The notes under the pieces were generated by a model. It worked only from the letters and a program-made list of their open reading frames with translations. It was not told the DNA's origin and did not search any database. Positions 1 through 56,088 of a stretch of 64,000 bases of DNA are shown here, in pieces. How positions within the stretch are numbered: position 1 is the first letter of the stretch; each line of letters starts with the position of its first letter. The translations under genes were made by a program, and so were the position numbers. Origin of the DNA: an uncultured Alphaproteobacteria bacterium (lineage in GTDB: Bacteria; Pseudomonadota; Alphaproteobacteria; RF32; CAG-239); the NCBI GenBank assembly GCA_944393685.1, contig CALYAW010000003.1, forward strand, positions 46,133-110,132. The letters run 5' to 3'.

Positions 1-2052
1 CTTTCTTTGTATGCTTTGTATTTTGCTTTTATGAAGACTTCTTATTCTTTTAATTTTTGGTATGTCTTAAATAATCATTTTGCGAAACTTGCAGATATTG
101 AAAAAATGGGATTACATAAAGGAATTTTGTTGGTTTTGGGAAGATTTCAGGATTATATCTTGGGCGTAACAAAACCTGCAAATATTTTGTGTATTGGCGA
201 AACTGGGTGCGGAAAAACATCGTCTGTCGCAATTCCCTCAATTTTACGTTCCGATAATGTGAGCGTTTTGGCTGTTGATAATGCCGGAACTTTAGCCAGG
301 CACACCAGTGGTCACAGAGCTGAAATCGGTAAAGTTTTTTATTTTAATTGGGATTTGGCTGATGATATTGATAAAGGAATTTTTTATCCTAAGTGGAATC
401 CTTTATGTATTGCTCAATTGCCCCCAAAGGGAAAAAAACGTGACGATTATCTTAAAAAAATTGCTTCTTGTTTGATTGCTGCCGATGAGGAGCATGAAGA
501 AGGAAATTATTGGTATTGGTTGAGTGAAAATGTTATGAACACAATGCTTGCTTTTTTGGTGGCAAAAATTTCGCAAGCTATGGCAAATGATTATTTCTTG
601 GATAAAATTTTGGAAAAACATTCTCTTAAAAAAGAAGAAAAAGAGGTCTTGCTTAGCTATTATTTAATGATGCCAGATGAGCTTACCCATGATATTGTCA
701 ATAAGTTGAAAAAATCTCCAATAATCAATGCCGAAGATTATATCCCTATCGGAAGCTGGGATGGTATTCCCGATTGTTGGAAAGGAAAAGATTTGTGTCT
801 GGCAATGTTGACCGATTGGTTGTTGCAAAATTATTTAGTTGCCAAGGACAAGGATAACCGTAATGATTGGCGAGTTTGGTTGGAAAAATTGATCGTTGAA
901 GCCGGTGTATTTAATTACGGAAGTAATATTATTCATGGAATTGAACAATTTTTGTATTTGTCTAAGCAACAGCGACAAATTGTTTTTGTTTGTATGGTGA
1001 GGCCATTAAAAAGTTTTATTAATCAGCTTGTCAGAGAAAAAACAAGTGTTAACGATTTTAATGTTGCGGATTTTCATGGTATTAAAAACAAGGAAACAGG
1101 TAAAATTGAGCCTGTGACGGTTTATGTGGTTGCAAATACGCGCAGCTCCAAATTCGTTAGCAGAATATTCATGGAATTGATGCTGGAACAGGGTGTTGTG
1201 GAGGGGAAAGCAAAAGGCGCATTTCCTTTGTTGGTGGTTCTTGATGATGTTGGTCAGATGCTTAAAGTGACAACACTGCCTGCTGCCGTCGCAAAAGGTG
1301 CTGCTATGAGGACATCGTTTTTGTTGTTGTGTAATAGTCTTAATAGTGTCGAAAATATGTATACTAAAGAAACATTGGAAGAATTGGTTTGTAATTCAAA
1401 TTATAAGATTATTATGGCTGATGATAATAAAAAAATGAGTAGACAGTTGAAAAAACTGGCAATTTTTGCCACAAGGTCTGTGCAGATTTCTTTGGATAAA
1501 AGAAGATCTTTGAGATCTCGTCGTGTTTATGCCGATGCTAATTATTTTCACCGTTTGGCTAAGGATTTTGAAACAAATCATAATCTGCGTATTAAGACAC
1601 GCGATTATCAGGTGGTTTTAGTTGAAGGTTATTATAATCGTCCAATTTTGGCTCGTAATATTCATTATATCAAAGATGATAAGTTTAAGGAAAAGGCAAT
1701 AAAAGAGGCTTGTTATGCCTTAAATGAGCAAGTTATTGCAAATCGAAATATTCAAGATGCCGGAACTCCCTCAATAGATGAAGTGCTTGCTGATATTGAT
1801 TTGGGTATAGATGATGAAATAGAATTAAAACAGTTTATGAATATGGCTTATGACGATGTTAAAAGCAAGATGCCTTCAGAAACAGATGTTAACAGCGTGA
1901 TTGCTAATGATATTTCTGAAAAATGGCATGGAGAGATTGAGCAAAATGGTAAGCAAAAAATATCGTCGCCACATGATGAATGGTGGTTAGGCGAAAAAGC
2001 TTTTGGTATTGGAAATCCTTCCAATACACAAAATCCATTTGCTAAAAAATAG
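1..2052 (+). CDS. Type IV secretion coupling protein-like P-loop NTPase (VirD4/TraG/TrwB family), 5'-truncated at the window edge
   Basis: The reading frame is open to position 1, so the TTG at 7 is not a real start. A Walker A motif GETGCGKTS is followed by VAIPSIL..VLAVDNAG..NPL, and later by a hydrophobic LLVVLDDVGQM (Walker-B-like) segment. This order of motifs is typical of T4SS coupling proteins. The N-terminal membrane domain would lie upstream of the window. Confidence 0.5.
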   Translation, partial: LSLYALYFAFMKTSYSFNFWYVLNNHFAKLADIEKMGLHKGILLVLGRFQDYILGVTKPANILCIGETGCGKTSSVAIPSILRSDNVSVLAVDNAGTLARHTSGHRAEIGKVFYFNWDLADDIDKGIFYPKWNPLCIAQLPPKGKKRDDYLKKIASCLIAADEEHEEGNYWYWLSENVMNTMLAFLVAKISQAMANDYFLDKILEKHSLKKEEKEVLLSYYLMMPDELTHDIVNKLKKSPIINAEDYIPIGSWDGIPDCWKGKDLCLAMLTDWLLQNYLVAKDKDNRNDWRVWLEKLIVEAGVFNYGSNIIHGIEQFLYLSKQQRQIVFVCMVRPLKSFINQLVREKTSVNDFNVADFHGIKNKETGKIEPVTVYVVANTRSSKFVSRIFMELMLEQGVVEGKAKGAFPLLVVLDDVGQMLKVTTLPAAVAKGAAMRTSFLLLCNSLNSVENMYTKETLEELVCNSNYKIIMADDNKKMSRQLKKLAIFATRSVQISLDKRRSLRSRRVYADANYFHRLAKDFETNHNLRIKTRDYQVVLVEGYYNRPILARNIHYIKDDKFKEKAIKEACYALNEQVIANRNIQDAGTPSIDEVLADIDLGIDDEIELKQFMNMAYDDVKSKMPSETDVNSVIANDISEKWHGEIEQNGKQKISSPHDEWWLGEKAFGIGNPSNTQNPFAKK

Positions 2053-6847: not shown

Positions 6848-7345
6848 ATGTCTGTGAAATTGGAACAAGCAGCTGCCGAGATTAAAAAATATCGTTCAGA
6901 AATTATTGATAAGTTAATGAAATATGCGGCAACTGACATGTTGCTTTTTTGGGGAACAGACAAAGACTTGATTCTTCGTCAGGAAGAAGTTTGGGGGCCT
7001 TTGCTACAATGGGCTTCAAAAGAATTTGGCGAAAAATTTGAGAAAACTCACGGATTAGAGGTTAGCGAAGAAAATCAAAAATCAGGTTACCGATTGAAGG
7101 CTTTTTTAGATGGTCTCAGCGATAAAGAATTAGCTGCTTATTATTTGGCCGCATTGAATATGAGGTCTGTTTTATTGGCCGCTGCTTTAATTAAAGGACG
7201 TATTAACGCTGAGCAAGCTTATAAAGCTGCTTATTTGGAGCAGCTTTTTCAGGAAGAAGTTTGGGGTGAAGATTTGGAATCAAAAGCTAAACTTGCAGAA
7301 CGTAAAAAAGAATTAGAAGATATTGAGAACTTTTTAGAAAAATGA
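6848..7345 (+). CDS. ATP12-family F1-ATPase assembly chaperone-like protein
   Basis: A 165-aa protein with helical EEVWG(E)D motifs repeated at both ends. The family resemblance is recalled, not computed. Confidence 0.4.
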   Translation: MSVKLEQAAAEIKKYRSEIIDKLMKYAATDMLLFWGTDKDLILRQEEVWGPLLQWASKEFGEKFEKTHGLEVSEENQKSGYRLKAFLDGLSDKELAAYYLAALNMRSVLLAAALIKGRINAEQAYKAAYLEQLFQEEVWGEDLESKAKLAERKKELEDIENFLEK

Positions 7346-19948: not shown

Positions 19949-19984
19949 AAACCCTCCGCCTGATTGACGGAGGGTTTTGTTTTA
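19949..19984. terminator. Bidirectional rho-independent terminator between convergent genes
   Basis: The hairpin aaaccctccg cctgattga cggagggttt is flanked by T tracts on both strands. Confidence 0.6.
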
Positions 19985-21241
19985 TTTGTGTGCAACAAAT
20001 GGAACTTTGGGGGAGGTGGCATTCAAAAGACGCTGCACATATCTTCCCTGATAGAGGTTTATTCCCAGAGCATTCCCAACCTCAATGGCCGATGGATCAT
20101 CAATACGGCATAGAATCATTTTAGCGCGCTCCGCTTTGTTAACATAATCCATAAAATGTTTATCTTCATTGATGACATCCATAAATGTCGGATGCCAGAT
20201 AATTTTCATGAGATCACAGTTGAGATTGGTTCTGTTAAGATATTTGAGCTTGTCAACAGAAATTCCGTCAATGCAGATTTTATAGCCTCGTGCTTGCGCA
20301 AAGGTTTTGGCCAAAACAAAAGATTTTATATCACTGAAAATATCAGCTAATTGCAATTCAAGAATGATGCTGGGACGCATTGAGGCGCTGATTCCTTCAT
20401 CGAAAGCTAAAAATTCATCGGATAAAATGGTTGATACATTAATATTGATGCTAAAATTGCCAATAAGAGAGCCGTCATCATGACGATTAATTGTTTCAAG
20501 AACCCTTTTATCCAGAGTCTCGCTTAAAGATAGGAAAAGCCACGGATTGGAAACCAAATCAACATCAGGTAAAAGCATTTCTCTTAAATCGGGAATTGAG
20601 ACATAAACTTCCTCAAAAACACGCAAAGGCGCAGATTTTCCTATAACTGCGCATATGGCTTGCCTGCGTATAAAGCTGGAAAAATCCGCTACTGAAAGAA
20701 TTTTTTGAACACGGGCTAAAATGTCTGGAGTAAATGGTTTTTTTTGTTTTCCTTGAGAAGATGAGCCTATTGTATTCATAACAAAAGGCGTGCTTTTTTT
20801 TACTTGCAGTTTAACCTGATTTTGTTGGTGACTTAATCTACTTACTAAATGATAAAACTCTTTCTTGTCTCCAACCATATTGTAAAATTTGATGAACCCA
20901 ATAGCTTCCAAATTGTCGGAGTTTTTTAATAGTATATCATCATGAAACATAAAACGAATTTTGACAAGACAAGATAAAATTTCATCCTTGATACGGCGAT
21001 TATATATGACGATTACATCTTCATTGGCAAACCAAAAATAACGAGCCATTGCTTTTGAAACAAATGCTGCAAATGTATCCGCCAACTCTTGGCGATGAGA
21101 ATCGCGGATATTTTTATTTTCGAGCTTGGATACACTGATGTAGATAGCATCATATTCATTAATGCTGTCGTCAAGTCGTCGTAAATATTCTGCTACGGCA
21201 ATGTCGGTTCGAAGAGAACGTGTTTCAGTTTTATTGTCCAT
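19982..21241 (-). CDS. Hypothetical protein, paralog A; C-terminal half resembles a degenerate EAL (c-di-GMP phosphodiesterase-like) domain
   Basis: The C-terminal segments KICIDGIS..LKYLNRTNLNCDLMKI and MILCRIDDPSAIEVGNALGINLYQG parallel the EAL motifs lalDDFGtG...dilKiD and vvAEGVEt..LGcd.aQG. No EAL catalytic motif is recognisable. It is homologous along its whole length to the adjacent gene. Confidence 0.55.
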   Translation of the reverse strand: MDNKTETRSLRTDIAVAEYLRRLDDSINEYDAIYISVSKLENKNIRDSHRQELADTFAAFVSKAMARYFWFANEDVIVIYNRRIKDEILSCLVKIRFMFHDDILLKNSDNLEAIGFIKFYNMVGDKKEFYHLVSRLSHQQNQVKLQVKKSTPFVMNTIGSSSQGKQKKPFTPDILARVQKILSVADFSSFIRRQAICAVIGKSAPLRVFEEVYVSIPDLREMLLPDVDLVSNPWLFLSLSETLDKRVLETINRHDDGSLIGNFSININVSTILSDEFLAFDEGISASMRPSIILELQLADIFSDIKSFVLAKTFAQARGYKICIDGISVDKLKYLNRTNLNCDLMKIIWHPTFMDVINEDKHFMDYVNKAERAKMILCRIDDPSAIEVGNALGINLYQGRYVQRLLNATSPKVPFVAHK

Positions 21242-22523
21242 CAGTTTGTCCTAGTATTTTTTCTAAAATTTCAGGGTAACGGCATTGACGACGGTTTACA
21301 CCGGTAATAAGACGGCGACGTTTAAGGCACTCTGTCGCAGAACAATGTTGTGCATCCGGACAGTGTGAGCGAATGAGCGCTGTTTCCAAGGTATCCATAT
21401 AAGGACCTTGAAAATTGCGGATGCCATATGAAATTCCCCAGCGTAACGCCTTTTCATCTGTACATTTTGCAAGAATAATACGATTACTGCCAAAGCGATT
21501 GATGATGTCATGGAGTTCTTGATTGTTGGTGTCAAATTCCATCATGGGATTCCAGAAAATCTTTATTAAATCTGGTTCTAGTCTGTTTATATCTATTAAA
21601 GAGAGTGTTTCGGGAATTAACCCGTCTATTAAAATTTGATGGCCTTGTTTGTGTAATTTTTCTTTGGCTTCAAAATAACTCTCCAGTTTGTTAAAAATAT
21701 CCATCATTTGCACTTCTGCAATTATTTGCGGATGATTGACAGGGCCGTCGGTTAGGAATGTGTCAAATTCCGGAGTAAATATTGAAGATAAATGCATATT
21801 TAAGCTGATGCATTGAGGCCAATTTTTTATGTCTGCTGCTTGAAAAGATGCTATCGTTTTTTTATCAAGAGCTTGTGTCAGATATAAAAACAACCATTTA
21901 TTGGCGGTGATATCCATATTCTTATCATATTGCGCGCTGAGATCTTTGACCGCTACAAAAAATTCTTGAAACATGACGCGAAATTGGTTGGCGTTTTCAA
22001 GACGGATAATACTTTGATGCTTAATTAATTCCGGAACATTTATAGCATCAAGGTGAGCAAGTACGCCTTCCATTTGTGAGGCTTCTATCGGGTATTTGAG
22101 GTTTGAAAAATCAGGAAGGCTCGCATTATTTAGCTGCTCTTGTATGTATTCGTACAATGTATAAAAATCATTCGGGAAATTGTATAAATGCGCAAATTCT
22201 GAAATATTGGCATTGAACAAAATAGGGTCAGAAGCCAGACCTTTGCGCAATTTATCCACCGCATTAGAAACAATGTTCTCGGTAATATTTTTGCCCAAAA
22301 TAACAAAGTCACCGCTGTTTAGAATATACATCATTCCCTCTGCTGCGCCAACCAAATCATCAAATAGCTTGGCAATAATTTTGATGAATGAGGGATGGCG
22401 ATTTTTGGGCTTGAGTTTGGACAGACTTACGTATAGCGCTGAATAGGCGGAGTGGCTGCGAGCAATCCGGTCTAGCGTATCGAGCAGGTTTTTTTCGGCA
22501 ACAAATCTGTTGGCTTGTGACAT
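21231..22523 (-). CDS. Hypothetical protein, paralog B (degenerate EAL-like C-terminus plus Cys-rich tail)
   Basis: It aligns with paralog A, for example YSALYVSLSKLKPKN against YDAIYISVSKLENKN and ILIDGLIPETLSLIDINRLEPDLIKI against ICIDGISVDKLKYLNRTNLNCDLMKI. I place the start at the ATG at 22523 (MSQANRF) by alignment with the paralog. The longer ORF reaching 22724 would overlap the divergent ferredoxin start. Confidence 0.55.
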   Translation of the reverse strand: MSQANRFVAEKNLLDTLDRIARSHSAYSALYVSLSKLKPKNRHPSFIKIIAKLFDDLVGAAEGMMYILNSGDFVILGKNITENIVSNAVDKLRKGLASDPILFNANISEFAHLYNFPNDFYTLYEYIQEQLNNASLPDFSNLKYPIEASQMEGVLAHLDAINVPELIKHQSIIRLENANQFRVMFQEFFVAVKDLSAQYDKNMDITANKWLFLYLTQALDKKTIASFQAADIKNWPQCISLNMHLSSIFTPEFDTFLTDGPVNHPQIIAEVQMMDIFNKLESYFEAKEKLHKQGHQILIDGLIPETLSLIDINRLEPDLIKIFWNPMMEFDTNNQELHDIINRFGSNRIILAKCTDEKALRWGISYGIRNFQGPYMDTLETALIRSHCPDAQHCSATECLKRRRLITGVNRRQCRYPEILEKILGQTDGQ

Positions 22524-22638: not shown

Positions 22639-22667
22639 TTGCGTTTTGGGGAGCTTGTCGATATAAT
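22639..22667 (+). promoter_or_regulatory. Candidate sigma70-type promoter of the hydrogenase operon
   Basis: TTGCGT, a 17-nt spacer, then TATAAT. A GGAGG ribosome-binding site lies 7 nt upstream of the ATG at 22699. Confidence 0.35.
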
Positions 22668-22698
22668 TTTTGTAAATATTTTTTGAGTTGGAGGAAAA

Positions 22699-22968
22699 AT
22701 GGCTTCGACAATAAAAGTTTGCATGGGTAGCTCATGTTTTGCTCGCGGAAATTCTAAAAATCTTCAGGTGATACAGAGCTTTTTGGAAAGTCACAATCTC
22801 AATGCCGAGGTCGAACTTACGGGGCTGCGTTGTTGTGATTGTTGTTCTAAGGGGCCAAATATTACGATTGACGGAACAGAATATAACAATGTGGAAAGCG
22901 GAATGCTCTATGATATATTAGAGAAGCATTTTTTGAAAACCGGTTCTGAGGATAAAAACAATGTCTAA
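22699..22968 (+). CDS. Thioredoxin-like [2Fe-2S] ferredoxin (NuoE/HndA-like)
   Basis: An 89-aa protein with CMGSSC ... CCDCC (C-x4-C ... C-x3-C). It is the first gene of the operon. Confidence 0.6.
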   Translation: MASTIKVCMGSSCFARGNSKNLQVIQSFLESHNLNAEVELTGLRCCDCCSKGPNITIDGTEYNNVESGMLYDILEKHFLKTGSEDKNNV

Positions 22969-24742
22969 TCGTGATTTTCCGTTATATACCGTCAAAAATG
23001 ATTGTCAGGATTGTTATAAATGTGTGCGCAGGTGTCCTGTTAAGGCAATTAAAATTGAGGATAATTCGGCGATGATTGTGCCGGAATTATGTATTGCCTG
23101 TGGTATTTGTTATGAAGTGTGTCCTGCTAAGGCTAAACAGCCTCGAAATGACTTGTCTCGCGCCAAATATTTGGTTTCCTCTAATCGAGAAATATATGTA
23201 TCTTTGGCGCCATCTTGGGTAACGGAATTTCCTCAATATACTAAAGAACAAATTGTTGCCGCAATCAGACGGCTTGGTATTAAAGGGGTGAGTGAAACTG
23301 CTCTCGGTGCTCAGGAAGTGACAGCCTCAACGGTGGAGCTGTTAAAAGATTGTGTGAATAAAAAAGAGAATCGGCTGCTGATTTCAACTGCTTGTCCAGC
23401 TGTCGTCGAATATATTGAAAAGTATTTACCGGAATTGACGCCTTGTTTGACGCCGTTGGCTTCTCCTTTATTGGCTCATTGCAGAATTTTAAAAGAAACT
23501 TTCGGGCAAAATATAGAAACGATTTTTATAGGTCCTTGTATCGCTAAAAAATTTGAAGCAGACAGACATCCTGAATTATTGTCTTTAGCTTTGAGTTTTG
23601 AAGATTTGCGCCAATGGTTGAAAGATGAAAATATTAATCCCTCAGAGTTGACGCCAGGTGTTTTCGATGTGTTTTCTCCCTCGGTTGCCAAAGAAGGTTG
23701 TGCTTATCCGATTGAGGGAGGAATGATTGAGACTATTAAACCGCATAATCTATCGGCAGATGTTTATATGGCCCAAATTACCGGAATTTATAGCCTACAG
23801 GAGGAGTTATCTCATATCGATGCCGAACATTTGACCAAACCTACTTTCTTGGAATGTTTGGCTTGTTATGGCGGCTGTGTGTCAGGTCCTTGTACTTCAA
23901 ATAATGGATCTGGATTACAAAAACGTATGGATGTATTAAAAAATTCATGTTTTGATGAAGCTGCTACTCGTACCCCTCAATATAATATTAAGCAAAATTA
24001 TACGGCGCAAAAGGTCGGCGGACTAAACAAAAATTTTGAAGAAAGCGACATACGAAAAGTACTGACCAAAATTGGCAAGTATAGTATTGAAGATGAGCTT
24101 AACTGTGGCGGATGTGGCTATAATACTTGTCGTAATTTTGCTTGCGCTTTGTTGGAAGGAAAAGCTGAACCTGAAATGTGTGTTTCTCATATGAAGCACC
24201 AAGCTCAGCGTAAGGCAAATGCGCTGATTCGTTGTATCCCGTCTCCTATAGTGATTGTTGATGCTAAGCTCAATATTATGGAATATAATGATCAGTTTCG
24301 AGATACTTTTTGGAATGAAGAAGAACATGCCGATATCTATGATTATAATAATTTATATGGTGCTAATCTTCGTGATTTTGTCAGCTTTACCAATTTGTTT
24401 TCGGCTTCTTTGGAGTTGGAGCAGGATATTCATAAAGAGCATGTTCGTCATGAAGACAAAATGTTTGATGTCGTAGTCTTTAATATTGATAAAAAACAAA
24501 GTGTCGGTGGAATTATTGAAGATGTGACCAATGCTGAAATGCATAAAGAAAAAATTGCTGAAAAAGCCAGAGAAGTTATTCATAAAAATTTGGCAACGGT
24601 GCAGCAAATTGCGTGTACACTTGGTGAGCATATGGCTGAAACGGAGGTTTTGCTGCGTTCAATTGCCAAAGATTATGCCACTACGGATAGGGAAAACGAG
24701 GGGATTAAAATTCGTACCAATTCTACCGAAAGGAAATTTTAA
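22961..24742 (+). CDS. Putative sensory [FeFe]-hydrogenase (HydS-like): 2x[4Fe-4S] ferredoxin domain, H-cluster domain, extra Cys4 motif and C-terminal PAS domain
   Basis: N-terminal CxxCxxCxxxCP repeats. H-domain motifs L2 (GPCIAKKFE) and L3 (ECLACYGGCVSGP) are present. L1 reads TACP rather than the canonical TSCCP. Then comes a CGGCGYNTCRNFAC cluster and a PAS-like C-terminus. The gene overlaps the upstream ferredoxin by 8 nt. Confidence 0.65.
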   Translation: MSNRDFPLYTVKNDCQDCYKCVRRCPVKAIKIEDNSAMIVPELCIACGICYEVCPAKAKQPRNDLSRAKYLVSSNREIYVSLAPSWVTEFPQYTKEQIVAAIRRLGIKGVSETALGAQEVTASTVELLKDCVNKKENRLLISTACPAVVEYIEKYLPELTPCLTPLASPLLAHCRILKETFGQNIETIFIGPCIAKKFEADRHPELLSLALSFEDLRQWLKDENINPSELTPGVFDVFSPSVAKEGCAYPIEGGMIETIKPHNLSADVYMAQITGIYSLQEELSHIDAEHLTKPTFLECLACYGGCVSGPCTSNNGSGLQKRMDVLKNSCFDEAATRTPQYNIKQNYTAQKVGGLNKNFEESDIRKVLTKIGKYSIEDELNCGGCGYNTCRNFACALLEGKAEPEMCVSHMKHQAQRKANALIRCIPSPIVIVDAKLNIMEYNDQFRDTFWNEEEHADIYDYNNLYGANLRDFVSFTNLFSASLELEQDIHKEHVRHEDKMFDVVVFNIDKKQSVGGIIEDVTNAEMHKEKIAEKAREVIHKNLATVQQIACTLGEHMAETEVLLRSIAKDYATTDRENEGIKIRTNSTERKF

Positions 24743-24745
24743 TCA

Positions 24746-25921
24746 ATGAGCGATTCTTTATTTATTGAAATTGGCTCTGCTCAGCAACAAAAAAATGGCG
24801 AAGATTGTTTCGGTGATACGGTCTATTCAAAAAAAATTCCCGAAGAAAGACGTATTATTTCTATCTTGTCCGATGGTCTTGGCTCCGGTGTTAAAGCTAA
24901 TATTTTATCTTCAATGACCACGCGGATGGCAATGAAATTTGTAGAAAGCAATATGGAGCTGATGCATTCATCGGAAGTAATGATGGACGCATTACCCGTT
25001 TGTCAAATTCGAAAAATAAGTTATGCAACATTTTCGGTAGTGGATACGCAGCTAGACGGAAAAACCCGCATTTTTGAAATGGACAATCCTCCGTTTATGT
25101 TTATTCGAGATAATAAAGCTGTTAACGTGCGGTATAGAGAAATATATTCCGAAAAGTGGAAAGACAGAACTATTAATATATCACAACTGACCAATCAAGA
25201 AGAAGATCGTATTATTTTAATGTCAGATGGTGTTACTCAGGCGGGAATCGGAAACAAAAATTATCCGCTGGGGTGGCAACGTCAAGGTTGTTTGGATTTT
25301 GTTTTGGAAAAAATTCGTAAGAATCCAACTATTTCTGCAAGTGATTTGGCAAATGCAATTGTTCAAGAAGCCATAAGTAAAGAGCTTAATCATAAGGCCG
25401 GAGACGATATAAGTTGTGTCGTTCTGTATTTTCGAAAGCCAAGAAAATTATTGGTTTTGACTGGACCTCCGTTTGATGAAAAACGAGATGCCGAGTTTGC
25501 GGAATTGGTGTCAAGTTATGATGGTAAAACAGCTATTTGCGGAGGAACAACCGCTAATATTATTGAGCGCGAATTGTGCCTAAAGTGTGAAATAGATAAA
25601 ACATCATTTGATGAGAAAATTCCGATGTGCTCTATTATGGATGGTATAGATTTGGTCACGGAAGGAATTTTAACCTTGACGGAAGTGTATCGTATGTTAA
25701 AAGAAGGCATAGATACCAATAAAAATAACGGAGCTACTCGGTTGGCAAAGTTGCTGTTGGACAGCGATAAGATTGATTTTGTGGTCGGTACTAAAATCAA
25801 TATTGCTCACCAAGATCCTAATTTGCCTATGGAGCTGGAGATAAGACGTAATATCGTCAAAAAAATCTTTAGAATTCTGCAGGATAAATATCTGAAGGAA
25901 ATTAGTGTTAAATACATATAG
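24746..25921 (+). CDS. PP2C-family serine/threonine phosphatase (SpoIIE/RsbU-like) with a roughly 150-aa C-terminal extension of unknown fold
   Basis: An N-terminal PP2C-like core (ILSDGLGSGVKANILSSMTT..., MSDGVTQ, GDDISCVVL) followed by an unassigned C-terminal region. It lies 4 nt after the hydS-like gene. Confidence 0.6.
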   Translation: MSDSLFIEIGSAQQQKNGEDCFGDTVYSKKIPEERRIISILSDGLGSGVKANILSSMTTRMAMKFVESNMELMHSSEVMMDALPVCQIRKISYATFSVVDTQLDGKTRIFEMDNPPFMFIRDNKAVNVRYREIYSEKWKDRTINISQLTNQEEDRIILMSDGVTQAGIGNKNYPLGWQRQGCLDFVLEKIRKNPTISASDLANAIVQEAISKELNHKAGDDISCVVLYFRKPRKLLVLTGPPFDEKRDAEFAELVSSYDGKTAICGGTTANIIERELCLKCEIDKTSFDEKIPMCSIMDGIDLVTEGILTLTEVYRMLKEGIDTNKNNGATRLAKLLLDSDKIDFVVGTKINIAHQDPNLPMELEIRRNIVKKIFRILQDKYLKEISVKYI

Positions 25922-25938
25922 AGAAGGACCTTTAAACA

Positions 25939-26208
25939 ATGGCAAATAAAGTAAAAGTCAGAATCTGCGTCGGCACTTCCTGTTTTGTGATGGGAGCTGC
26001 TCAAATCCAGTCGTTGGAATTTAATGCTCCCGCCGATATTGCCGAGCAAATAGAAATTGTTGAAGAACGTTGCATGAATTTGTGTAAGGATGTCAAAACA
26101 AAATACAATAACGGACCGTTTGTTTTTGTTAATGATGAATTGGTTGAAGAAGCTACCTATGAAAAAGTCGTGAATAAAATTCGCGAAGAAATTAAAAAAA
26201 GCTGTTAA
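25939..26208 (+). CDS. Thioredoxin-like [2Fe-2S] ferredoxin (second copy)
   Basis: An 89-aa protein with CVGTSC ... CMNLC (C-x4-C ... C-x3-C). Confidence 0.6.
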   Translation: MANKVKVRICVGTSCFVMGAAQIQSLEFNAPADIAEQIEIVEERCMNLCKDVKTKYNNGPFVFVNDELVEEATYEKVVNKIREEIKKSC

Positions 26209-26237
26209 TAATAGATAATAAAAAGAGTTTGAAGTAA

Positions 26238-27698
26238 ATGTTGATACCTAAGAATAACGCAAACTTAATGCGTACAAAAATTTTGATTAAATTAGCAGAA
26301 AGTTATTTGCAAGATAAATTTGCACAAGCTGACAGAATTCCTTTGGAACTGCGTCCAAAAGACATGCAGTCTAGTCGGTGTTGCATATATAAAGACAGAG
26401 CCGTTTTGAAGTATCGCTGTATGGCTGGGTTGGGGCATTGTCCTGAAGAAGAACAAGATGAGTTAATAACTTTGAAAGAGTATGGCGAGCAGGCTTTAGA
26501 GAGAAAAGAAGCTCCTAAAAATAAACTGTCGGTGATAGATATTGCTTGTTCGGCTTGTGTTAAGTCTCAATATGTTATTACGGATGTTTGTCGGGGTTGT
26601 TTTGCTCAGCCCTGCCGTTTGAACTGTCCAAAAGAAGCTATTTCAATTATTAAAGGGCGCGCTCATATTGATCCTGACAAATGTGTTAATTGCGGTAAGT
26701 GTTTTGAAGTTTGTCCTTATCATTCGGTAGTTAAAATTCCTGTTCCTTGTGAAGAAGCTTGTCCGGTGGGCGCTATTACAAAAGATGAATCGGGCAAAGA
26801 ACATATTGATACCGAAAAATGTATTTCTTGCGGAAAATGTTTGGCTTCTTGTCCGTTCGGTGCTATCGTCGAGCGGTCGCAAATGATTGATGTTATGCGT
26901 GAGATTAAAGAGACCGATAAACATGTGGTCGCAATGTTGGCTCCGGCAATTTCCGGACAATTTCCTGGTTCCCTTAACGCGTTGGTTGGCGCATTGAAAA
27001 AGTTTGGTTTTTCAGATGTGATTGAGGTTGCTGTCGGTGCTGATATTACCACGCAGAAAGAAGCGGCAGAATTTGTTGAGAGAATGGAAGATGGAAAGCC
27101 TTTTATGACGACTTCTTGTTGTCCTGCTTATTTTCGGGCTGCTCAGGTGCACATTCCGGAGATTAAACCGTTTGTTTCTGATACAAAAACGCCAATGTAT
27201 TATACTGCTGAATTGGTTAAAAAAGAAGCTCCTGATTGTGTGGCTGTTTTTGTCGGTCCATGTTTGGCAAAAAGAGCTGAGGCAGAATGGGATCCAAATG
27301 TTGATTATGTCCTAACTTTTGAAGAATTGGGGGCAATGTTGGTTGCCGCTGGTATTAATGTTGATGAATGTGAAGAAATTCCATTTAATAAAATTTCTCA
27401 TGTCCAAGGAAGACAGTTTCCGGTTACGGGCGGTGTTGCTGGAGCTGTGGCTAGTTTGGTCGGAGATAAGTTTGATATTCGTCCTGAGAAGATTGATGGT
27501 TTGACCAAGGAAAATATTAAACTCTTAAAGCGCTACGCAACCAAAGGTGGTGAAAACAACATGTTGGAAGTGATGTGTTGTGAGGGAGGCTGTGTTTCCG
27601 GTCCGGGATGTATCGCTCTGTCTAAGAAAGCCGCTCGAGCCGTTGATGCATATGCTCAAACCGGCGAGGTGCTTAAAGAAGATACTAAAATAGGTTAG
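26238..27698 (+). CDS. hydA: [FeFe]-hydrogenase catalytic subunit (HydA) with N-terminal Fe-S cluster domains
   Basis: Canonical H-cluster motifs: L1 TSCCP, L2 GPCLAKRAE, L3 EVMCCEGGCVSGPG. Upstream are two CxxCxxCxxxCP ferredoxin motifs and additional Cys clusters. Confidence 0.85.
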   Translation: MLIPKNNANLMRTKILIKLAESYLQDKFAQADRIPLELRPKDMQSSRCCIYKDRAVLKYRCMAGLGHCPEEEQDELITLKEYGEQALERKEAPKNKLSVIDIACSACVKSQYVITDVCRGCFAQPCRLNCPKEAISIIKGRAHIDPDKCVNCGKCFEVCPYHSVVKIPVPCEEACPVGAITKDESGKEHIDTEKCISCGKCLASCPFGAIVERSQMIDVMREIKETDKHVVAMLAPAISGQFPGSLNALVGALKKFGFSDVIEVAVGADITTQKEAAEFVERMEDGKPFMTTSCCPAYFRAAQVHIPEIKPFVSDTKTPMYYTAELVKKEAPDCVAVFVGPCLAKRAEAEWDPNVDYVLTFEELGAMLVAAGINVDECEEIPFNKISHVQGRQFPVTGGVAGAVASLVGDKFDIRPEKIDGLTKENIKLLKRYATKGGENNMLEVMCCEGGCVSGPGCIALSKKAARAVDAYAQTGEVLKEDTKIG

Positions 27699-27702
27699 AG
27701 TT

Positions 27703-27735
27703 TAAGGCCGCAATTTAAAATTGCGGCCTTATTGT
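27703..27735 (+). terminator. Rho-independent terminator ending the hydrogenase operon
   Basis: aaggccgcaatttaaaattgcggcctt followed by attgttt. Confidence 0.6.
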
Positions 27736-27785
27736 TTAAGAAGTTACAGATAAATCACAATAACTTTATTTTAAATGAAAGTTTA

Positions 27786-36452: not shown

Positions 36453-38159
36453 TTATAAATATGTCCTGATTTCTTTATATGGTTTAATACCTAAGTCTTG
36501 TAAAGTTTTTGCAATATATGCGCTCAGATCGTTCCAAGCAGTCCAACGATCAATAAATTCTTTGGCTCGCTGTGGTGATTTGGAAAGCTGAATTTCTATT
36601 GTTTCTTGAAGGAGTTTATGCATAACTTCATCCATTTTGGCAAAATTTATTTCTAACTTTTGCTCAGAATTAAAGTTGATAGCTTTGTGTTCCAATAAAA
36701 AGTTAAAATGAATTAAATCTCCCATGCGATGTGGCTGAATCAGCTGAGGTTTACTTTTTAAAAGCATACGTACTATCCAGGTCGTGTATATTTCTTTTAA
36801 GGTTTGGTCACTAATTACTCCGGATTTTACGTATTCAGGCATGAAAGTAATGGAAATTACATCCGCTTTGTTTTCCTCAATAATGTGGTTATATATTCCC
36901 AACGCATTTTGGTAACTACTGTTGGGACCGAGTGAATGTCCGTTTTCGTGACCAATAACAAAAATATGCTCCGCTTCAGGGTTATAATAAGGATGAAGCG
37001 TTTCTGAGACCAGTGCGTGTAACATCTTGTGTGTGCGTTCAGTATCTATGTTTTGTCGAACCTGACGATGATACACATTACGGCGACCGCCGCCTAACTT
37101 TATGGAAAGTTTATCGTTGTTGGGCAAATTTTGTGCGGTGGTGATGCCCCCGCGGCATTGAGCATAATCTCCTTGTAACGTAGCCAAGTCAACGTCTACC
37201 ATGGTTTGTTTTAATTCATTGTCTGCTATATCTTGTTTGTATTTGTCTGCATAGGGCATCAGTTTCGCCAAATTTTTCATTTGTTCTTTAAATGTGAGCA
37301 GTAATTTGGTTCCTTGCGCATTAACAATACCAACTCGAACCCCCAGCGTGTCTTTGGGTGTGACTTCTATACCGGCTTCAGACAGCATTTTAACAAGGTG
37401 CGGATTATCATAGACAGTTGGGGTCATTTCGTCATCATAGTTTTCCCTACTTAATGTGAATTCAAGAGGTGTATCTTGTAAAACAGCCCAGTGTTTATCT
37501 GCCAGTTGATCCATGTCTTCATTATTTTGGAGAAGCGCTTGCACTTGCCAACCCAAATAATCATTGAACGCAGCGTTGGTTGAATAGTGTGCGGCTAATT
37601 CTAACTCGTTTGCTACTTTGCTAAAAATAGGAGCAAAATATTCCGTATAGTCGATTGCTTTTAGTTCTTTGCCGAAACGGCGAACCATGGTGCGTGCAGA
37701 AAGAATTTTGCTAACTTCTTCTGTTTTGCCTTGTTCAAGCATTTGTTCCAAAATCTTGTGGAATTCTTCAACGTCTAAATCTGTGGGATAAAAGTTGCGA
37801 CCTTTGAAAATATGTACACCTTTAAAAATTTCAATCGGTTCGGAATCTATGCCGTTTAAACCGGCAACTCCGTTAAATGAATTAAATAAGCGTAAGGCTT
37901 TGGCTGCATGAGTGTTTGATACTGCTGCTTCTAATTCGGCTTTTAATGTTAGGTTTAGGGGATGATCTTGTTCAAGAGCAACTTCATTCATCATTTTGGC
38001 GGCGCGAACCAGATAATAAAGTGCTTTTTTGTCTCCTTCAGACAGTGCACGATATCCTTCAAAATTTTGATCTATCATGTTGAAGGTTTGTATTTTATCC
38101 GCAAAAATAGCATCAAGTTCATTTTCTGGTATTGCTATTTCATACCCTTTAATCTTCAT
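36453..38159 (-). CDS. Cytoplasmic gluzincin-type zinc metallopeptidase (HExxH...E), DPP III/M49-like
   Basis: HENGH with a Glu 20 residues downstream in IIEENKAD (thermolysin-like spacing). No signal peptide. Length is 568 aa. Confidence 0.4.
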   Translation of the reverse strand: MKIKGYEIAIPENELDAIFADKIQTFNMIDQNFEGYRALSEGDKKALYYLVRAAKMMNEVALEQDHPLNLTLKAELEAAVSNTHAAKALRLFNSFNGVAGLNGIDSEPIEIFKGVHIFKGRNFYPTDLDVEEFHKILEQMLEQGKTEEVSKILSARTMVRRFGKELKAIDYTEYFAPIFSKVANELELAAHYSTNAAFNDYLGWQVQALLQNNEDMDQLADKHWAVLQDTPLEFTLSRENYDDEMTPTVYDNPHLVKMLSEAGIEVTPKDTLGVRVGIVNAQGTKLLLTFKEQMKNLAKLMPYADKYKQDIADNELKQTMVDVDLATLQGDYAQCRGGITTAQNLPNNDKLSIKLGGGRRNVYHRQVRQNIDTERTHKMLHALVSETLHPYYNPEAEHIFVIGHENGHSLGPNSSYQNALGIYNHIIEENKADVISITFMPEYVKSGVISDQTLKEIYTTWIVRMLLKSKPQLIQPHRMGDLIHFNFLLEHKAINFNSEQKLEINFAKMDEVMHKLLQETIEIQLSKSPQRAKEFIDRWTAWNDLSAYIAKTLQDLGIKPYKEIRTYL

Positions 38160-39708
38160 TATTTATCTCCACAGTTCTGAATCTGTATATTTTCATTTTA
38201 TCTGACCAATAAGTCGGGCTTAGGCCGGCTTTGATTTTAAGATTTGTTAGAAATTCTTTTTTATTGGGAAGCTGTTTCCAGACAGAGGGAAGAAAAAGTC
38301 CTTGTCTGTCGCCGTCTCTTATAACCAGACCATCAATTTCCGGTTTGATTTGTGACAGTAATTCCTCTTCGTTTTGGCATCTGATGCGTTCATATCCCGT
38401 TAACAGAGAAATATTGAAATCCGTATCTTTTAGCTCTTCTGCGCTTAAAGGAGAAAAACGGCTGTCTTTTAATGCGGCTTGGAAAGCATTGTCGGCTATA
38501 TCCAAAGCAATGGCTCGGCTTGGCAGTAGAGAGCCAATGCAGCCGCGTAATTCTCCTTTACGGGTTAAAGTAACAAAAGAAGCTCCTTTGTTAAATAAAA
38601 CATCTGGATAATTATCTCGGTTTGGAGTGAATTGTTTGTTAACAACGGCATGTTCCAATGCTTGTTTAACAATATTTTGTAAATCAGTTTTATTGTGTTT
38701 GGCAAAAAAACGTAGGTTTTCGGTCTCTTGTTCTAGTGCCGAGAGTTTAGGCGTTTCGGATGGTTGGCGATTAAACATCCAAGCTGCGTAACCCACCACA
38801 CTGTTCATGTCACCGGTGATATTTCCGGAGTTGGTGATATCAAGAAGATGAGGTTTGAATCCGAGAGCTTTTGCCAAAAGCAAAGCTGCGTTTATACCAG
38901 TTGCACCACAGGAGCGATGTTCGTCAATGGCTTGGTTTTGTTCCACCATGCTTGCCGTTTCTTTATCAATTTCGGAAGCAGTATCATAATCAAGATAGTG
39001 CGATAAATCTGCTGATATGATAAGTAAAGAATCATTTTGTTCCAGATAGGGCTTTAAGGCTGTTGCTATCTTTTGCGGTGTAGTATTCCCATATAAAATG
39101 GGGATAATGCTGAATTTTTCAAGCGTCTTTTGTAAAAAAGGAAGCTGGACTTCAAGCGCATGCTCGTTTTTATGCGCTTTGTCATTTATTGCAAAATTTG
39201 GTTTTGATGCCAATTCTGCTGTAATTTTTTTGTTTACTTTGACCTCGCCTAACGGAGTTTTGAAATTTGCAGCAGAAGAAAGTGCTAGATTATTGAGAGG
39301 AACTCTATGCGAAGGACCTAGTAAAAAGACTTTTTTTATTTGCTTTTTAAAAGGTAAAATCTTTTGATAGGCGTGTGCCGCAACTTGGGCAGAATATAGA
39401 TAACCTGCATGAGGCACTATCAGAATATGAGGTCGTTTGTTTAAACTTGGAGGAACCATTGCAAGATAATTTTCAATATCTTGGTGAAGTTGGTATACGT
39501 CCGCGGGATAGAATAAACCTGCGACAGCTGCTTCCCTGCTAGGATTTATATCGTCATCTCTTAATGAATAGTCTACAATTACTTCATTGTTGGATGATGT
39601 ATATGCTTTGACAAAATAAATATTGAGGATAACGATGGCAATTATGATGACAGCAATAAATATATATTTTGGCAGATTAGCATAATCCATTTCAAATTTT
39701 TCAAACAT
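38149..39708 (-). CDS. Membrane-anchored fusion of MEMO1-family (AmmeMemoRadiSam system protein B) and AMMECR1 domains
   Basis: An N-terminal transmembrane helix. The MEMO1 region contains LFYPAD..HILIVPHAGYLYS. The C-terminal AMMECR1 region contains the LRGCIGSL motif. Confidence 0.7.
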   Translation of the reverse strand: MFEKFEMDYANLPKYIFIAVIIIAIVILNIYFVKAYTSSNNEVIVDYSLRDDDINPSREAAVAGLFYPADVYQLHQDIENYLAMVPPSLNKRPHILIVPHAGYLYSAQVAAHAYQKILPFKKQIKKVFLLGPSHRVPLNNLALSSAANFKTPLGEVKVNKKITAELASKPNFAINDKAHKNEHALEVQLPFLQKTLEKFSIIPILYGNTTPQKIATALKPYLEQNDSLLIISADLSHYLDYDTASEIDKETASMVEQNQAIDEHRSCGATGINAALLLAKALGFKPHLLDITNSGNITGDMNSVVGYAAWMFNRQPSETPKLSALEQETENLRFFAKHNKTDLQNIVKQALEHAVVNKQFTPNRDNYPDVLFNKGASFVTLTRKGELRGCIGSLLPSRAIALDIADNAFQAALKDSRFSPLSAEELKDTDFNISLLTGYERIRCQNEEELLSQIKPEIDGLVIRDGDRQGLFLPSVWKQLPNKKEFLTNLKIKAGLSPTYWSDKMKIYRFRTVEINNED

Positions 39709-54873: not shown

Positions 54874-55033
54874 AAAACCTTTCAAATCCCTTGAAATGGT
54901 TGGGTTTGCTTAAAACTTAAAAACAAATTTTTACAAATGCTATACACTTTGCAATACACTTTTCGCATATTTTTCATTTTAAACCGAAAAAACTAAAAAA
55001 TACACGCTTTTTTGCTTAAAATTGGTAAAATTT

Positions 55034-55471
55034 TCACAAATTATCTGTGCTTGGAGTACCAATATTTTTATGATCTTCATTTTGGGTATCTTGGATTAAT
55101 AAGAAAAATAAGCGAAGATTAAGCATTAATGTTACAAAAGCAAATAAAATACCAAATAAATGAGATATATCATCCTGACTATTCATAAAAATATATCCTA
55201 AAAAAGCACTTAAGGGAATCGCAATAAGAATTTCTCCAGATTTTCCGACGTCATGCAATCGTCTAACTGTTATAGCTAATGCGGGAAGAAAAATTAACAC
55301 TCTAAAAATAATATGAAATTTTGAATTATCACCTAACAGTATTATCATTAAAAAACAAATTATGAAATTAACTAATGCAAAAGACCAAAATTCTACACGA
55401 GATGACTTTCCTGAGAAATCATCATATTTTTGTAAACAATTGATATAATTATGAAATAAATTTAAACTCAT
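55034..55471 (-). CDS. DUF805 (YhaH-like) inner-membrane protein
   Basis: SRVEFWSF ... RRLHDVGKSG is the hallmark of DUF805. Three to four transmembrane helices. Confidence 0.6.
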   Translation of the reverse strand: MSLNLFHNYINCLQKYDDFSGKSSRVEFWSFALVNFIICFLMIILLGDNSKFHIIFRVLIFLPALAITVRRLHDVGKSGEILIAIPLSAFLGYIFMNSQDDISHLFGILFAFVTLMLNLRLFFLLIQDTQNEDHKNIGTPSTDNL

Positions 55472-56088
55472 TTTTCCCTCAAAATATTATGTAAAAACAC
55501 TAACACTATATCAAAAAAATACAATCTATAAATATTACTTTGCGTAAAAAGTCTTGCACTTCGTATTCTTCTTTCTACTATTTCAGTATATTAGAAGTCA
55601 AATGATATATATAAAACATTTTGGCGTTTGTACAAAAGTCGGACTTAATGACACCAATATCACTAAGTTTGTTTTTTTCAATATCTAAAACCGATACAGA
55701 AAAGAGATAGTATAATCAAATTATTTTATATAATTTCCTTTTATATAAAAATATCTTGATTGTTTTTGCTGTATTTGATTAAATATTCCCAAAATAGAAA
55801 GGGCTTCAAAGTAATTTTGTGTATGAAGAGAGATAATTTTGTATCTTCTCTTGTTATTAACTCTTGGTAACTCCACTCTATAATAGAAAGTTTTGTTTCG
55901 CAACTGTAAATAGATTTTAGTTGCCATACAGTTTGCCATACAATTTTCAGACATTTTGCTCACACAAAAGTTGTTTATTGTAAAGCAAAAATGTAAGTAC
56001 TTGTTTTTGAAAGATTTAAAAAAATTAAAGAGCCTAACTTTTCAGCCATAGCTCTTAATCTAAGTGCTTGATTTACAAGCAAAATAAA

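Follow-up and report, generated by a model that had tools for sequence, protein, structure and literature searches.

An hfs-type [FeFe] hydrogenase operon with a putative H2 sensor in an uncultured gut alphaproteobacterium

Two [FeFe] hydrogenases, one of sensory type and one of a catalytic class, are encoded on either side of a Ser/Thr phosphatase gene in a 64,000-nucleotide stretch of alphaproteobacterial DNA (the window), raising the question of what one compact operon does with both enzymes and how it came to reside among typical housekeeping genes. We consider it probable (roughly 0.78) that this is an hfs-type hydrogenase operon, inherited vertically since ancient times, in which HydS would sense H2 and act on a PP2C phosphatase while HydB serves as the working enzyme.

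Operon layout and boundaries

The locus comprises the following features:

22639..22667, + strand: candidate sigma-70-type promoter, TTGCGT-17-TATAAT, read from the sequence, 31 nt 5' of the fdx1 ATG
22699..22968, + strand: fdx1, 89-aa thioredoxin-like [2Fe-2S] ferredoxin in the hfsA position (PF01257, 33.8 bits)
22961..24742, + strand: hydS, 593-aa predicted sensory-type [FeFe] hydrogenase with group C / M2f architecture, HydDB C3-like
24746..25921, + strand: PP2C/SpoIIE-family Ser/Thr phosphatase, 391 aa, in the hfsC position
25939..26208, + strand: fdx2, second 89-aa thioredoxin-like [2Fe-2S] ferredoxin (PF01257, 25.4 bits), consistently paired with the group B gene
26238..27698, + strand: hydB, [FeFe] hydrogenase of group B ('colonic-type'; monomeric and ferredoxin-linked), 486 aa, in the hfsD position
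27703..27741, + strand: intrinsic terminator with a 13-bp G+C-containing stem, a 3-nt loop and a T-rich tail

The five co-directional open reading frames are tightly spaced, as a sequence-only reading had described: fdx1 and hydS overlap by 8 nt (ATGTCTAA), and gaps of 3, 17 and 29 nt follow hydS, PP2C and fdx2, respectively. GGAGG, GAGGA or AAGGA precedes four of the five starts, and hydB has only a weak AAGAG. The arrangement is that of a single, presumably co-transcribed operon. The single promoter proposed for it stays a candidate, as the site is present with a perfect -10 element, but its -35 element matches the consensus at only three of six positions and so falls below the listing rule of the promoter scan; promoter-like sites across the region total what chance would produce. 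The proposed terminator is clear-cut, with a stem spanning 27703-27731 that begins 5 nt past the hydB stop codon and folds at -20.9 kcal/mol (z = -5.4; 0 of 200 shuffles equally stable). Since it lies between the convergent hydB and mutY genes, it may serve both directions. At the other edge, an upstream 497-aa open reading frame overlaps fdx1; its true start is almost certainly at 22523, yielding a 430-aa product and therefore a 175-bp divergent intergenic region.

Two hydrogenases, a phosphatase and two ferredoxins

Profile searches matched the expected families in all five proteins. HydS opens with two [4Fe-4S] motifs (two Fer4 matches) and continues through the H-domain (Fe_hyd_lg_C, E 3.9e-47) into a C-terminal Cys4 cluster (PF04060; C382, C385, C390 and C407), with all cluster cysteines invariant in the orthologue alignment. 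By the active-site criteria that separate sensory from prototypical [FeFe] hydrogenases (PMC10055695), the informative residues are A144, G191 and L300, which occupy the CpI positions C299, M353 and M497 and are kept in 74, 78 and 72 of 80 HydS orthologues, respectively. A PAS region (approximately residues 418-525) and a conserved helical segment (approximately residues 525-575) complete the protein. In the window's own HydS the PAS match is below Pfam thresholds (E about 0.07); the domain is recognized in 17 of 28 orthologues, and a HydS family profile matched PAS domains in the PDB at E 2e-4. We therefore take the PAS domain to be real but diverged, visible only with family profiles, and the ferredoxin domain, H-domain, extra Cys4 motif and PAS initially ascribed to HydS are all accounted for. 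Because it combines a sensory active site with the C-terminal Cys4 cluster and PAS, HydS matches, as far as sequence can tell, group C / HydDB C3 ("phosphatase-linked"). The pairing of a Cys4 cluster with PAS is the group C / M2f architecture (PMC13104023), and the literature still terms the sensory role of group C putative (PMC8924675, PMC13104023).

The 391-aa protein encoded next scores 39.7 bits against SpoIIE/PP2C (cut-off 25), its catalytic, metal-binding Asp residues are invariant, and its nearest PDB relatives are SpoIIE and RsbX, confirming its identity as a PP2C phosphatase. The PP2C domain (residues 1-230) is fused to a conserved Rossmann/MGS-like alpha/beta domain (residues 234-391). 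The earlier observation that the operon lacks a kinase, STAS or anti-sigma partner extends to the whole 64-kb window, and no such partner recurs beside the cassette across 80 genomes.

Both small proteins are 2Fe-2S ferredoxins, as had been proposed, exceeding the PF01257 Pfam cut-off of 24.8 bits and displaying a Cys-x4-Cys...Cys-x3-Cys pattern (Cys8-x4-Cys13...Cys45-x3-Cys49 in fdx1; Cys10-x4-Cys15...Cys45-x3-Cys49 in fdx2). Their positions recur: an fdx1 homologue lies immediately 5' of hydS at 61 of 75 judgeable loci, and fdx2 lies between PP2C and the group B gene at 32 of the 33 loci with group B downstream.

HydB combines Fer4 motifs with Fe_hyd_lg_C (E 5.5e-59), and its catalytic residues, Cys294 of the TSCCP motif and Met446, are kept in 41/41 orthologues. 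The label of canonical HydA first given to this enzyme has to be replaced, since it belongs to group B and not group A (533 bits against TIGR04105, FeFe_hydrog_B1, cut-off 450, covering model positions 3-459 of 462). In gut bacteria, enzymes of this group actively produce H2 in a ferredoxin-dependent manner (PMC12578642). The gene and domain assignments thus support an operon of an H2-sensor-type hydrogenase, a PP2C phosphatase and a catalytic hydrogenase.

How these parts may work together can be outlined. HydB would most likely vent reduced-ferredoxin electrons from fermentation as H2, with fdx2 probably its dedicated electron partner. HydS would be a slow sensory hydrogenase, with alanine in place of the proton-relay cysteine at the H-cluster where it would bind H2. 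TmHydS and TamHydS, for their part, show very low, irreversible activity. A redox signal could pass from the H-cluster through the C-terminal [4Fe-4S] cluster to the PAS and helical output region, with fdx1, translationally coupled to hydS, probably resetting or poising the sensor. The output would be the adjacent SpoIIE-type PP2C, catalytically intact by sequence, whose activity HydS would modulate and which would dephosphorylate a phospho-Ser/Thr target encoded away from the operon. Ambient H2 would in this way tune hydrogenase activity, fermentative redox genes or both.

Host lineage, inheritance and alternative readings

The host is an uncultured anaerobic alphaproteobacterium of the gut and a close relative of 'Azospirillum sp. 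CAG:260' / Candidatus Scatocola. Its housekeeping proteins cluster at an identity of at least 90% with entries named Alphaproteobacteria, Azospirillum sp. CAG:260 and Ca. Scatocola, and ATP12, DUF465 and MreBCD-PBP2-RodA confirm the backbone noted previously. Window genes for LDH, AmmeMemoRadiSam, U32/TrhP and serine dehydratase point to an anaerobe. As hydEFG is absent from the 64-kb window, the capacity to mature these enzymes is deduced from a related MAG; HydEFG, PFO and a 'type A' (group B) [FeFe] hydrogenase have been published for CAG:260 and CAG:239 (PMC4967309). Hydrogenases are not new to this lineage, its group B enzyme and maturases having been reported in 2016 (PMC4967309).

Nor is the cassette rare, as mention of HydS, PP2C and HydA linkage in Firmicutes and Thermotogae had implied. 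It occurs in Melainabacteria, Spirochaetota, Bacteroidota, Planctomycetota, Lentisphaerota, Desulfovibrio and Opitutia, and is already catalogued as HydDB C3 'phosphatase-linked' plus B 'colonic-type' (PMC5037454) and as hfsABCD (PMC5707799, PMC11837493). PP2C adjoins hydS at 72 of 75 judgeable loci; a group B gene lies downstream at 33 of 56, and fdx2 plus group B at 32 of 56. In other lineages Rex is found upstream at 25 loci and AdhE adjacent at 10, which fits the genetics of T. saccharolyticum, where adhE expression and ethanol yield both rise once hfsA or hfsB is deleted, an effect that requires hfsC and hfsD (PMC5707799, PMC11837493). Lineage clades are congruent among the HydS, PP2C and HydB trees (neighbour-joining, without support values).

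The sequence-only reading had offered two origins, lateral acquisition or an anaerobic alphaproteobacterial lineage with an H2-responsive circuit, and the evidence favors the latter. A recent import from Firmicutes or another gut anaerobe would suit the patchy distribution of the cassette across phyla and the finding that the nearest non-clade relatives belong to other phyla and share only 44-49% identity; some placements do look like transfers, with a Desulfovibrio copy (L037) falling inside the Gastranaerophilales clade and an 'Alphaproteobacteria' copy (L026) grouping with UMGS1001. However, with GC of 0.37-0.42 and GC3 of 0.31-0.39 the operon genes cannot be told apart from the flanks, neither edge of the operon is marked by an integrase, transposase, repeat or tRNA boundary, and the organism as a whole looks anaerobic. 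Across the clade the same operon is represented by well over a hundred protein clusters from gut MAGs (65-91% HydS identity). Relatives as distant as 68% in HydS retain it along with the EAL-like genes upstream, and in all three gene trees the clade forms a private, long-stemmed branch. A recent import is therefore quite improbable: the operon was acquired anciently and then inherited vertically within the clade.

Two further readings concern function. The five proteins could form one multi-subunit catalytic complex (the 'Hfs hydrogenase' view) in which HydS and HydB both turn over H2, the ferredoxins wire one to the other, the phosphatase is an accessory and nothing is sensed. That the five genes are tightly coupled in translation and strictly co-occur agrees with such a complex, as does the drop in hydrogenase activity and H2 production when the whole hfs operon is deleted in Thermoanaerobacterium. 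Yet deletion of hfsB singly raises hydrogenase activity, and hfsD alone, re-expressed in the whole-operon deletion, reproduces the hfsB single-deletion phenotype (all PMC5707799, PMC11837493). HydS, moreover, has neither the proton-relay Cys nor the two conserved Met on which fast turnover by prototypical enzymes depends (PMC10055695), it bears a PAS signalling domain, and some HydS-PP2C modules adjoin bifurcating-type hydrogenases instead of group B, leaving a complex unlikely. It is more doubtful still that in this clade HydS-PP2C signals into an effector pathway of c-di-GMP type, by way of the two degenerate EAL-domain proteins encoded divergently, instead of to a partner-switching or transcription-factor target. 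The 175-bp divergent promoter region is common to the operon and the EAL-like genes, these genes stay beside the operon in loci L006 and L007 and are missing in all other phyla, and the window encodes a GGDEF protein; but the link is one of adjacency, the EAL matches are below the Pfam cut-off with catalytic motifs missing, dozens of lineages have the cassette without such genes, and in L007 another gene intervenes.

Comparison with known systems

HydB is of the same class, by NCBIfam model, as the gut group B hydrogenases (Bacteroides enzymes, CpIII; PMC12578642), sharing with them the catalytic Cys and Met, an extra N-terminal Fe-S domain and the lack of a C-terminal small-subunit-like domain. 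Unlike hydB, the Bacteroides genes are discussed without a sensor module (PMC12578642). HydB also shares its gut alphaproteobacterial lineage with the CAG:260 'type A' enzyme, one of those listed for Azospirillum sp. CAG:239/260 and Acetobacter sp. CAG:977; that 2016 report, concerned with how eukaryotes arose, treats only the hydrogenase and makes no mention of sensor, phosphatase or the two ferredoxins (PMC4967309).

The operon PP2C has the PPM fold and invariant metal-binding aspartates of SpoIIE, RsbU and RsbP, but differs in its own C-terminal Rossmann/MGS-like domain, in having no adjacent STAS substrate or anti-sigma kinase across the 80 genomes and in its proposed regulator, a hydrogenase.

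HydS resembles TmHydS (Thermotoga maritima), RaHydS (Ruminococcus albus) and HydDB C3 (PMC5037454, PMC10055695, PMC13104023) in its two N-terminal [4Fe-4S] clusters, Ala at CpI C299, a small residue at M353, PAS after a C-terminal Cys4 cluster, and a Ser/Thr phosphatase encoded next to it. At CpI M497 it has Leu where TmHydS has Ser, its PAS is strongly diverged, and its partner hydrogenase is of group B, in contrast to the bifurcating type beside HydS in other lineages.

The closest counterpart is the hfsABCD operon of T. saccharolyticum / T. thermosaccharolyticum (Shaw 2009; PMC5707799; PMC11837493), which, judging from published descriptions, has the same gene order and kinds of protein: a small first gene, the PAS-containing [FeFe] hydrogenase HfsB, the serine phosphatase HfsC and, as counterpart of HydB, the ferredoxin-linked group B hydrogenase HfsD (PMC8924675). 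The regulatory scheme proposed for the window operon draws on the genetics of hfs. The window operon differs in having no Rex or adhE nearby, in its extra fdx2 between phosphatase and catalytic hydrogenase, in a first gene that clearly encodes a 2Fe-2S ferredoxin, whereas HfsA is described as poorly alignable with known proteins, and in its host, a mesophilic gut alphaproteobacterium as opposed to a thermophilic Firmicute.

The five-gene operon and its products

The hydrogenase operon proposed in the sequence-only reading is real, as ORF and domain searches confirmed all five of its genes as co-directional + strand ORFs lying exactly where that reading had placed them.

Features of the operon, in window coordinates
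22639-22667, candidate promoter, TTGCGT-17-TATAAT, -10 perfect and -35 weak
22699-22968, + strand, fdx1, ORF for the first ferredoxin
22961-24742, + strand, hydS, ORF for the sensory-type hydrogenase
24746-25921, + strand, PP2C gene, ORF for the phosphatase
25445-25921, second domain of PP2C, residues 234-391, about 160 aa
25939-26208, + strand, fdx2, ORF for the second ferredoxin
26238-27698, + strand, second hydrogenase gene (hydB), ORF

The junctions are, in order, an 8-nt overlap and gaps of 3, 17 and 29 nt, the hydS stop lying 3 nt from the PP2C start, and Shine-Dalgarno sequences are good at four of the five starts and weak at hydB. A 13-bp hairpin with a T-rich tail starts 5 nt past the last stop and folds at -20.9 kcal/mol (z = -5.4), with no equally stable structure among 200 shuffles. 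The terminator proposed earlier is thus upheld by its fold statistics, while the promoter proposed with it is a candidate only, its -35 being weak; the site total of a promoter scan equalled the shuffle expectation, so the scan adds no support beyond the hand-read TATAAT. Judged from this layout, the five genes are probably co-transcribed.

Upstream, a 497-aa ORF apparently overlaps fdx1; a better start at Met 22523 (430 aa), with which one public gene call agrees, leaves a 175-bp divergent intergenic region before the operon. The strongest promoter-like site of this region lies on the - strand (22582-22554, 10 of 12 matches), ahead of the 430-aa gene. That gene belongs to an EAL-like pair (19982-22523, - strand) of tandem paralogues of 419 and 430 aa (Met 22523) that are ~27% identical, each with an N-terminal ~215 aa without assignment and, at the C-terminal end, a degenerate half resembling EAL; their EAL scores in Pfam, 21.9 and 29.7 bits, fall under the cut-off of 31.3. 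Among the related loci, only those of the alphaproteobacteria L006 and L007 keep the pair beside the operon.

The 593-aa HydS combines two N-terminal Fer4 motifs (residues 12-58), an H-domain (PF02906, E 3.9e-47) and a C-terminal Cys4 motif (PF04060, E 1.8e-9, residues 380-408). Its H-cluster ligands C145, C193, C302 and C306 are invariant in 80 orthologues, all 12 accessory-cluster cysteines (N-terminal [4Fe-4S] plus C-terminal Cys4) are invariant, and so are all 16 cluster-binding cysteines in a 28-sequence family alignment. Sensory enzymes, in the active-site numbering of the reference hydrogenase CpI, do not have Cys at C299, carry a small residue (Gly, Ser or Thr) at M353 and do not conserve M497 (PMC10055695). 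The equivalent residues of HydS are A144 (Ala in 74/80 orthologues), G191 (Gly in 78/80) and L300 (Leu in 72/80).

What sets group C apart from group D is a PAS domain after the C-terminal cluster (PMC13104023). The window protein itself scored below the Pfam threshold for PAS (E ~0.07), with PAS_9 aligned over its full length at residues 427-523, and the assignment was settled via orthologues and a family profile: PAS_8 (PF13188) is matched by 17 of the 28 HydS orthologues (best E 8.7e-8), and the C-terminal family profile matches the PDB PAS domains of Aer2, DcuS and CitA (E 2e-4 to 1e-2) as well as those of DosP, YtvA and WalK. HydS is predicted from these matches to carry a PAS domain, and its architecture is that of group C / M2f because it contains N-terminal clusters, an H-domain, a C-terminal cluster and PAS (PMC13104023). 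Since HydDB defines C3 as "phosphatase-linked", with an adjacent Ser/Thr phosphatase gene (PMC5037454), HydS and its adjoining phosphatase appear by their features to match this subgroup. The HMM matches, the A144/G191/L300 pocket, the Cys4 motif and the predicted PAS support, at the level of sequence, the earlier proposal of a hydrogenase of H2-sensing type. After the PAS, at the C-terminal end, residues ~525-575 (window 24533-24685) form a highly conserved helical segment with the consensus KAxEVIxKNLxTVQxIAxLLGENAAETExxLNSI (A551, L554, G555 and L565 invariant); it has no Pfam or PDB match and is likely an output or dimerisation element.

The last gene had been described as a canonical HydA, a label that does not hold, as its 486-aa product passes the group B model TIGR04105 (533.3 bits, cut-off 450, model positions 3-459 of 462) and scores far under the cut-offs of the group A models (158 vs 406). 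The TSCCP cysteine C294 and the L3 methionine M446 are kept in 41/41 orthologues; N-terminal Cys clusters at 48-68 and 104-130 are accompanied by two Fer4 motifs; and the protein ends 34 residues beyond the last H-cluster cysteine (C452), with no C-terminal small-subunit-like domain. HydB is classed by these matches as a group B [FeFe] hydrogenase with a predicted catalytic-type pocket. The annotation of two 2Fe-2S ferredoxins was borne out, as both 89-aa proteins pass the Pfam cut-off (PF01257, 24.8 bits), fdx1 at 33.8 bits and fdx2 marginally at 25.4 bits, and both have the four Cys ligands, spaced C-x4-C...C-x3-C.

The phosphatase and its second domain

The 391-aa PP2C scores 39.7 bits against PF07228 (SpoIIE; cut-off 25), finds its closest PDB match in SpoIIE (E 3e-16) and has invariant metal-binding residues D24, D43, D161, D220 and D221, in agreement with the original PP2C annotation. 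With an AF2 model of pLDDT 88.6, it is a predicted SpoIIE-type PPM phosphatase with the PPM fold.

Residues 234-391 have no Pfam family, no PDB sequence match and no close solved structure. Their conservation equals that of the catalytic domain, with the invariant motifs TGPP, CGGTTA, DLVTEGILT and AHQDPxLP, and they are fused to the phosphatase in 73/73 near-full-length orthologues recovered. The fold is a generic three-layer alpha/beta arrangement, Rossmann/MGS-like, and assignment of the domain as STAS or kinase was ruled out; it may act as a ligand sensor or docking surface. A more elaborate and rather unlikely proposal is that the domain is an undescribed ligand-binding or docking module for the HydS signal or for a second input (nucleotide, redox cofactor), so that the cassette would work as a switch with two inputs, complete in itself, and would dephosphorylate HydB, HydS or a ferredoxin and not a classical STAS partner. 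If true, a PPM phosphatase would here be wired in a new way, and hundreds of anaerobe species would conserve the arrangement. The questions of the C-terminal domain and of the substrate concern the whole cassette family and not the window specifically, and this conserved domain without prior characterisation is one of three points of modest wider value, beside the spread of the five-gene form and its Rex and AdhE neighbours.

Distribution, neighbours and descent of the cassette

The full-length HydS architecture was found in 755 clusters at the 50% identity level (E<=1e-30), and at least 547 GTDB species genomes encode it. Among the best 80 genome loci, with denominators counting the judgeable cases, the same two-domain PP2C gene directly follows hydS in 72/75, an fdx1 homologue precedes hydS in 61/75, and a group B hydrogenase lies downstream in 33/56, with fdx2 in between in 32 of those 33. 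Cassette loci occur in Melainabacteria/Gastranaerophilales, Spirochaetota, Bacteroidota, Planctomycetota, Lentisphaerota, Desulfovibrio, Opitutia and others, and at least 10 phyla of gut, rumen and sediment anaerobes conserve the five-gene form, with its two dedicated 2Fe-2S ferredoxins, as a unit. In 13 further loci HydS-PP2C stands next to a NuoE-like gene and hydrogenase genes of greater length (bifurcating type), and a Labilibaculum MAG carries a tandem hydS-PP2C-fdx-hydS-PP2C arrangement (L045:7971-14345) whose second HydS is 31% identical to the query.

Clustering of 2768 flanking ORFs from the 80 loci yielded Rex, AdhE, NuoE-like and sigma-54 activator families as neighbours. The redox repressor Rex flanks the hydS-PP2C cassette in 25/80 loci from several phyla, bifunctional AdhE in 10 and a sigma-54 activator in ~12 (examples of Rex and AdhE flanks are L084:2857-3567 and L017:4366-7020). 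Neither Rex nor AdhE lies near the operon in the window, and the notion that the sigma-54 activator is tied to the alphaproteobacterial clade was dropped, its representative having no match in L007 or the window. The recurrence of Rex and AdhE as neighbours favours the idea of a cassette that links H2 level with the redox balance of fermentation. Among the clustered neighbours neither a kinase nor a STAS family recurred, and no STAS, HATPase, anti-sigma or other kinase was found in the 64-kb window, which extends the earlier remark that the operon has no such partner; a scan of all window ORFs >=110 aa likewise found no hydE, hydF or hydG.

An identical HydS, with the same genes around it, was found on 12 independent metagenome contigs, and relatives of 65-91% identity fall into >100 protein clusters labelled, for instance, "MAG: Alphaproteobacteria bacterium" or "MAG: Azospirillum sp.". 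SerS, MreB and FabF of the window share 90%-identity clusters with proteins named Azospirillum sp. CAG:260, Candidatus Scatocola faecipullorum (Ca. Scatocola being placed by NCBI taxonomy in Alphaproteobacteria, Rhodospirillales) and Alphaproteobacteria bacterium. The alphaproteobacterial-type backbone noted at the outset was recovered as ATP12, DUF465, MreBCD-PBP2-RodA and VirD4, alongside the anaerobe-flavoured L-LDH, AmmeMemoRadiSam fusion, U32/TrhP and serine dehydratase. At the edge of the window (7-2052) is the VirD4-like protein, a coupling protein of type IV secretion, and the 165-aa ATP12-like ORF (6848-7345) matches only the C-terminal part of its Pfam model. The - strand stretch 36453-39708 holds the fused AmmeMemoRadiSam system A+B protein (519 aa), followed by a 568-aa ORF with no Pfam or NCBIfam match; a 484-aa ORF at 57909-59363 is also without assignment. 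G+C falls to 0.26 at 55001-56000, against a window mean of ~0.38, just upstream of tRNA-Leu(taa) (56089-56175) and beside a DUF805 gene.

Lateral acquisition and an anaerobic lineage had been offered as alternative explanations of this setting. A recent horizontal transfer of the operon is contradicted by a base composition that matches the flanks, the suggested GC comparison having found no deviation in GC or GC3, by operon boundaries with no mobile-element signature and by conservation of the operon in the clade; the part that stands is an old acquisition in an anaerobic lineage. In neighbour-joining trees of HydS, PP2C and HydB, built without support values, the window groups with L006 and L007 on a stem that is long and private to them, and all three trees show identical major lineage clades; the deeper position, again without support values, is near the PVC group for HydS and PP2C and beside Gastranaerophilales for HydB. 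On this picture, an anaerobic lineage of gut alphaproteobacteria acquired the operon long ago and has since passed it on vertically. A full five-gene cassette is also present in L026, a 6101-bp locus from a MAG labelled Alphaproteobacteria (GC 0.50), whose genes group with UMGS1001 and Gastranaerophilales-type sequences apart from the window's clade, which points to an independent acquisition or else to a fault of binning or labelling.

Proposed signalling and relation to known systems

The best-supported reading, and one whose first part has a good basis in sequence and homology, is a mechanism of H2 sensor, phosphatase and HydB. HydB, with fdx2, would pass electrons from reduced ferredoxin to H2, as gut group B enzymes dispose of such electrons (PMC12578642); HydS, with the translationally coupled fdx1, would report H2 and redox level via its C-terminal cluster and PAS; and PP2C would convert the HydS signal into dephosphorylation of some target. 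We infer the HydS-to-PP2C coupling, and likewise the PP2C target. Most gut H2 production is now attributed to group B enzymes, and an understanding of this sensor module could show how that production is controlled.

The view of the operon as a purely catalytic multi-subunit complex is contradicted by the sensory-type pocket of HydS, by its PAS and by the genetics of hfsB in the Thermoanaerobacterium hfsABCD operon. Signalling from HydS-PP2C to the clade-specific, divergent EAL-like pair, which adjoins the operon in the opposite direction, is an unlikely alternative suggested by adjacency alone; the catalytic motifs are missing, with EAL, DDFG and EGVE absent from both proteins, and the cassette is present elsewhere without EAL-like genes. 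The sensor, phosphatase and HydB mechanism also differs from SpoIIE/RsbU partner-switching modules, in which a STAS substrate and an anti-sigma kinase lie nearby; as none is present in the window or recurs by the cassette, SpoIIE-type partner switching locally lacks one defining feature.

The group B enzyme of the host lineage ("type A" there), HydE/F/G and PFO were described by Degli Esposti et al. 2016 (PMC4967309), so that its catalytic hydrogenase is already in the literature; the sensor and phosphatase are not mentioned there. An alphaproteobacterial host has some bearing on debates over the ancestry of eukaryotic [FeFe] hydrogenases, a point raised in the same 2016 paper (PMC4967309). 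Among the closest known systems is hfsABCD, which shares with the window the order of a small HfsA, a PAS hydrogenase HfsB, a serine phosphatase HfsC and a ferredoxin-linked group B HfsD (PMC11837493, PMC8924675), the likeness to T. saccharolyticum HfsA-D (ACU11594-ACU11597) being judged by published descriptions. Firmicute loci (L060, L070, L077 and L080) also contain hydS-PP2C. By analogy, the Rex/AdhE-flanked cassette appears to match hfs genetics, in which adhE expression and ethanol yield go up when hfsA or hfsB is lost, provided that hfsC and hfsD are there (PMC5707799), its cross-phylum flanks being a genomic echo of the Thermoanaerobacterium hfsB-adhE regulatory link. The operon in the window is a standard cassette of catalogued kind (hfs / group C3 plus group B), differing from hfsABCD by one extra gene, fdx2.
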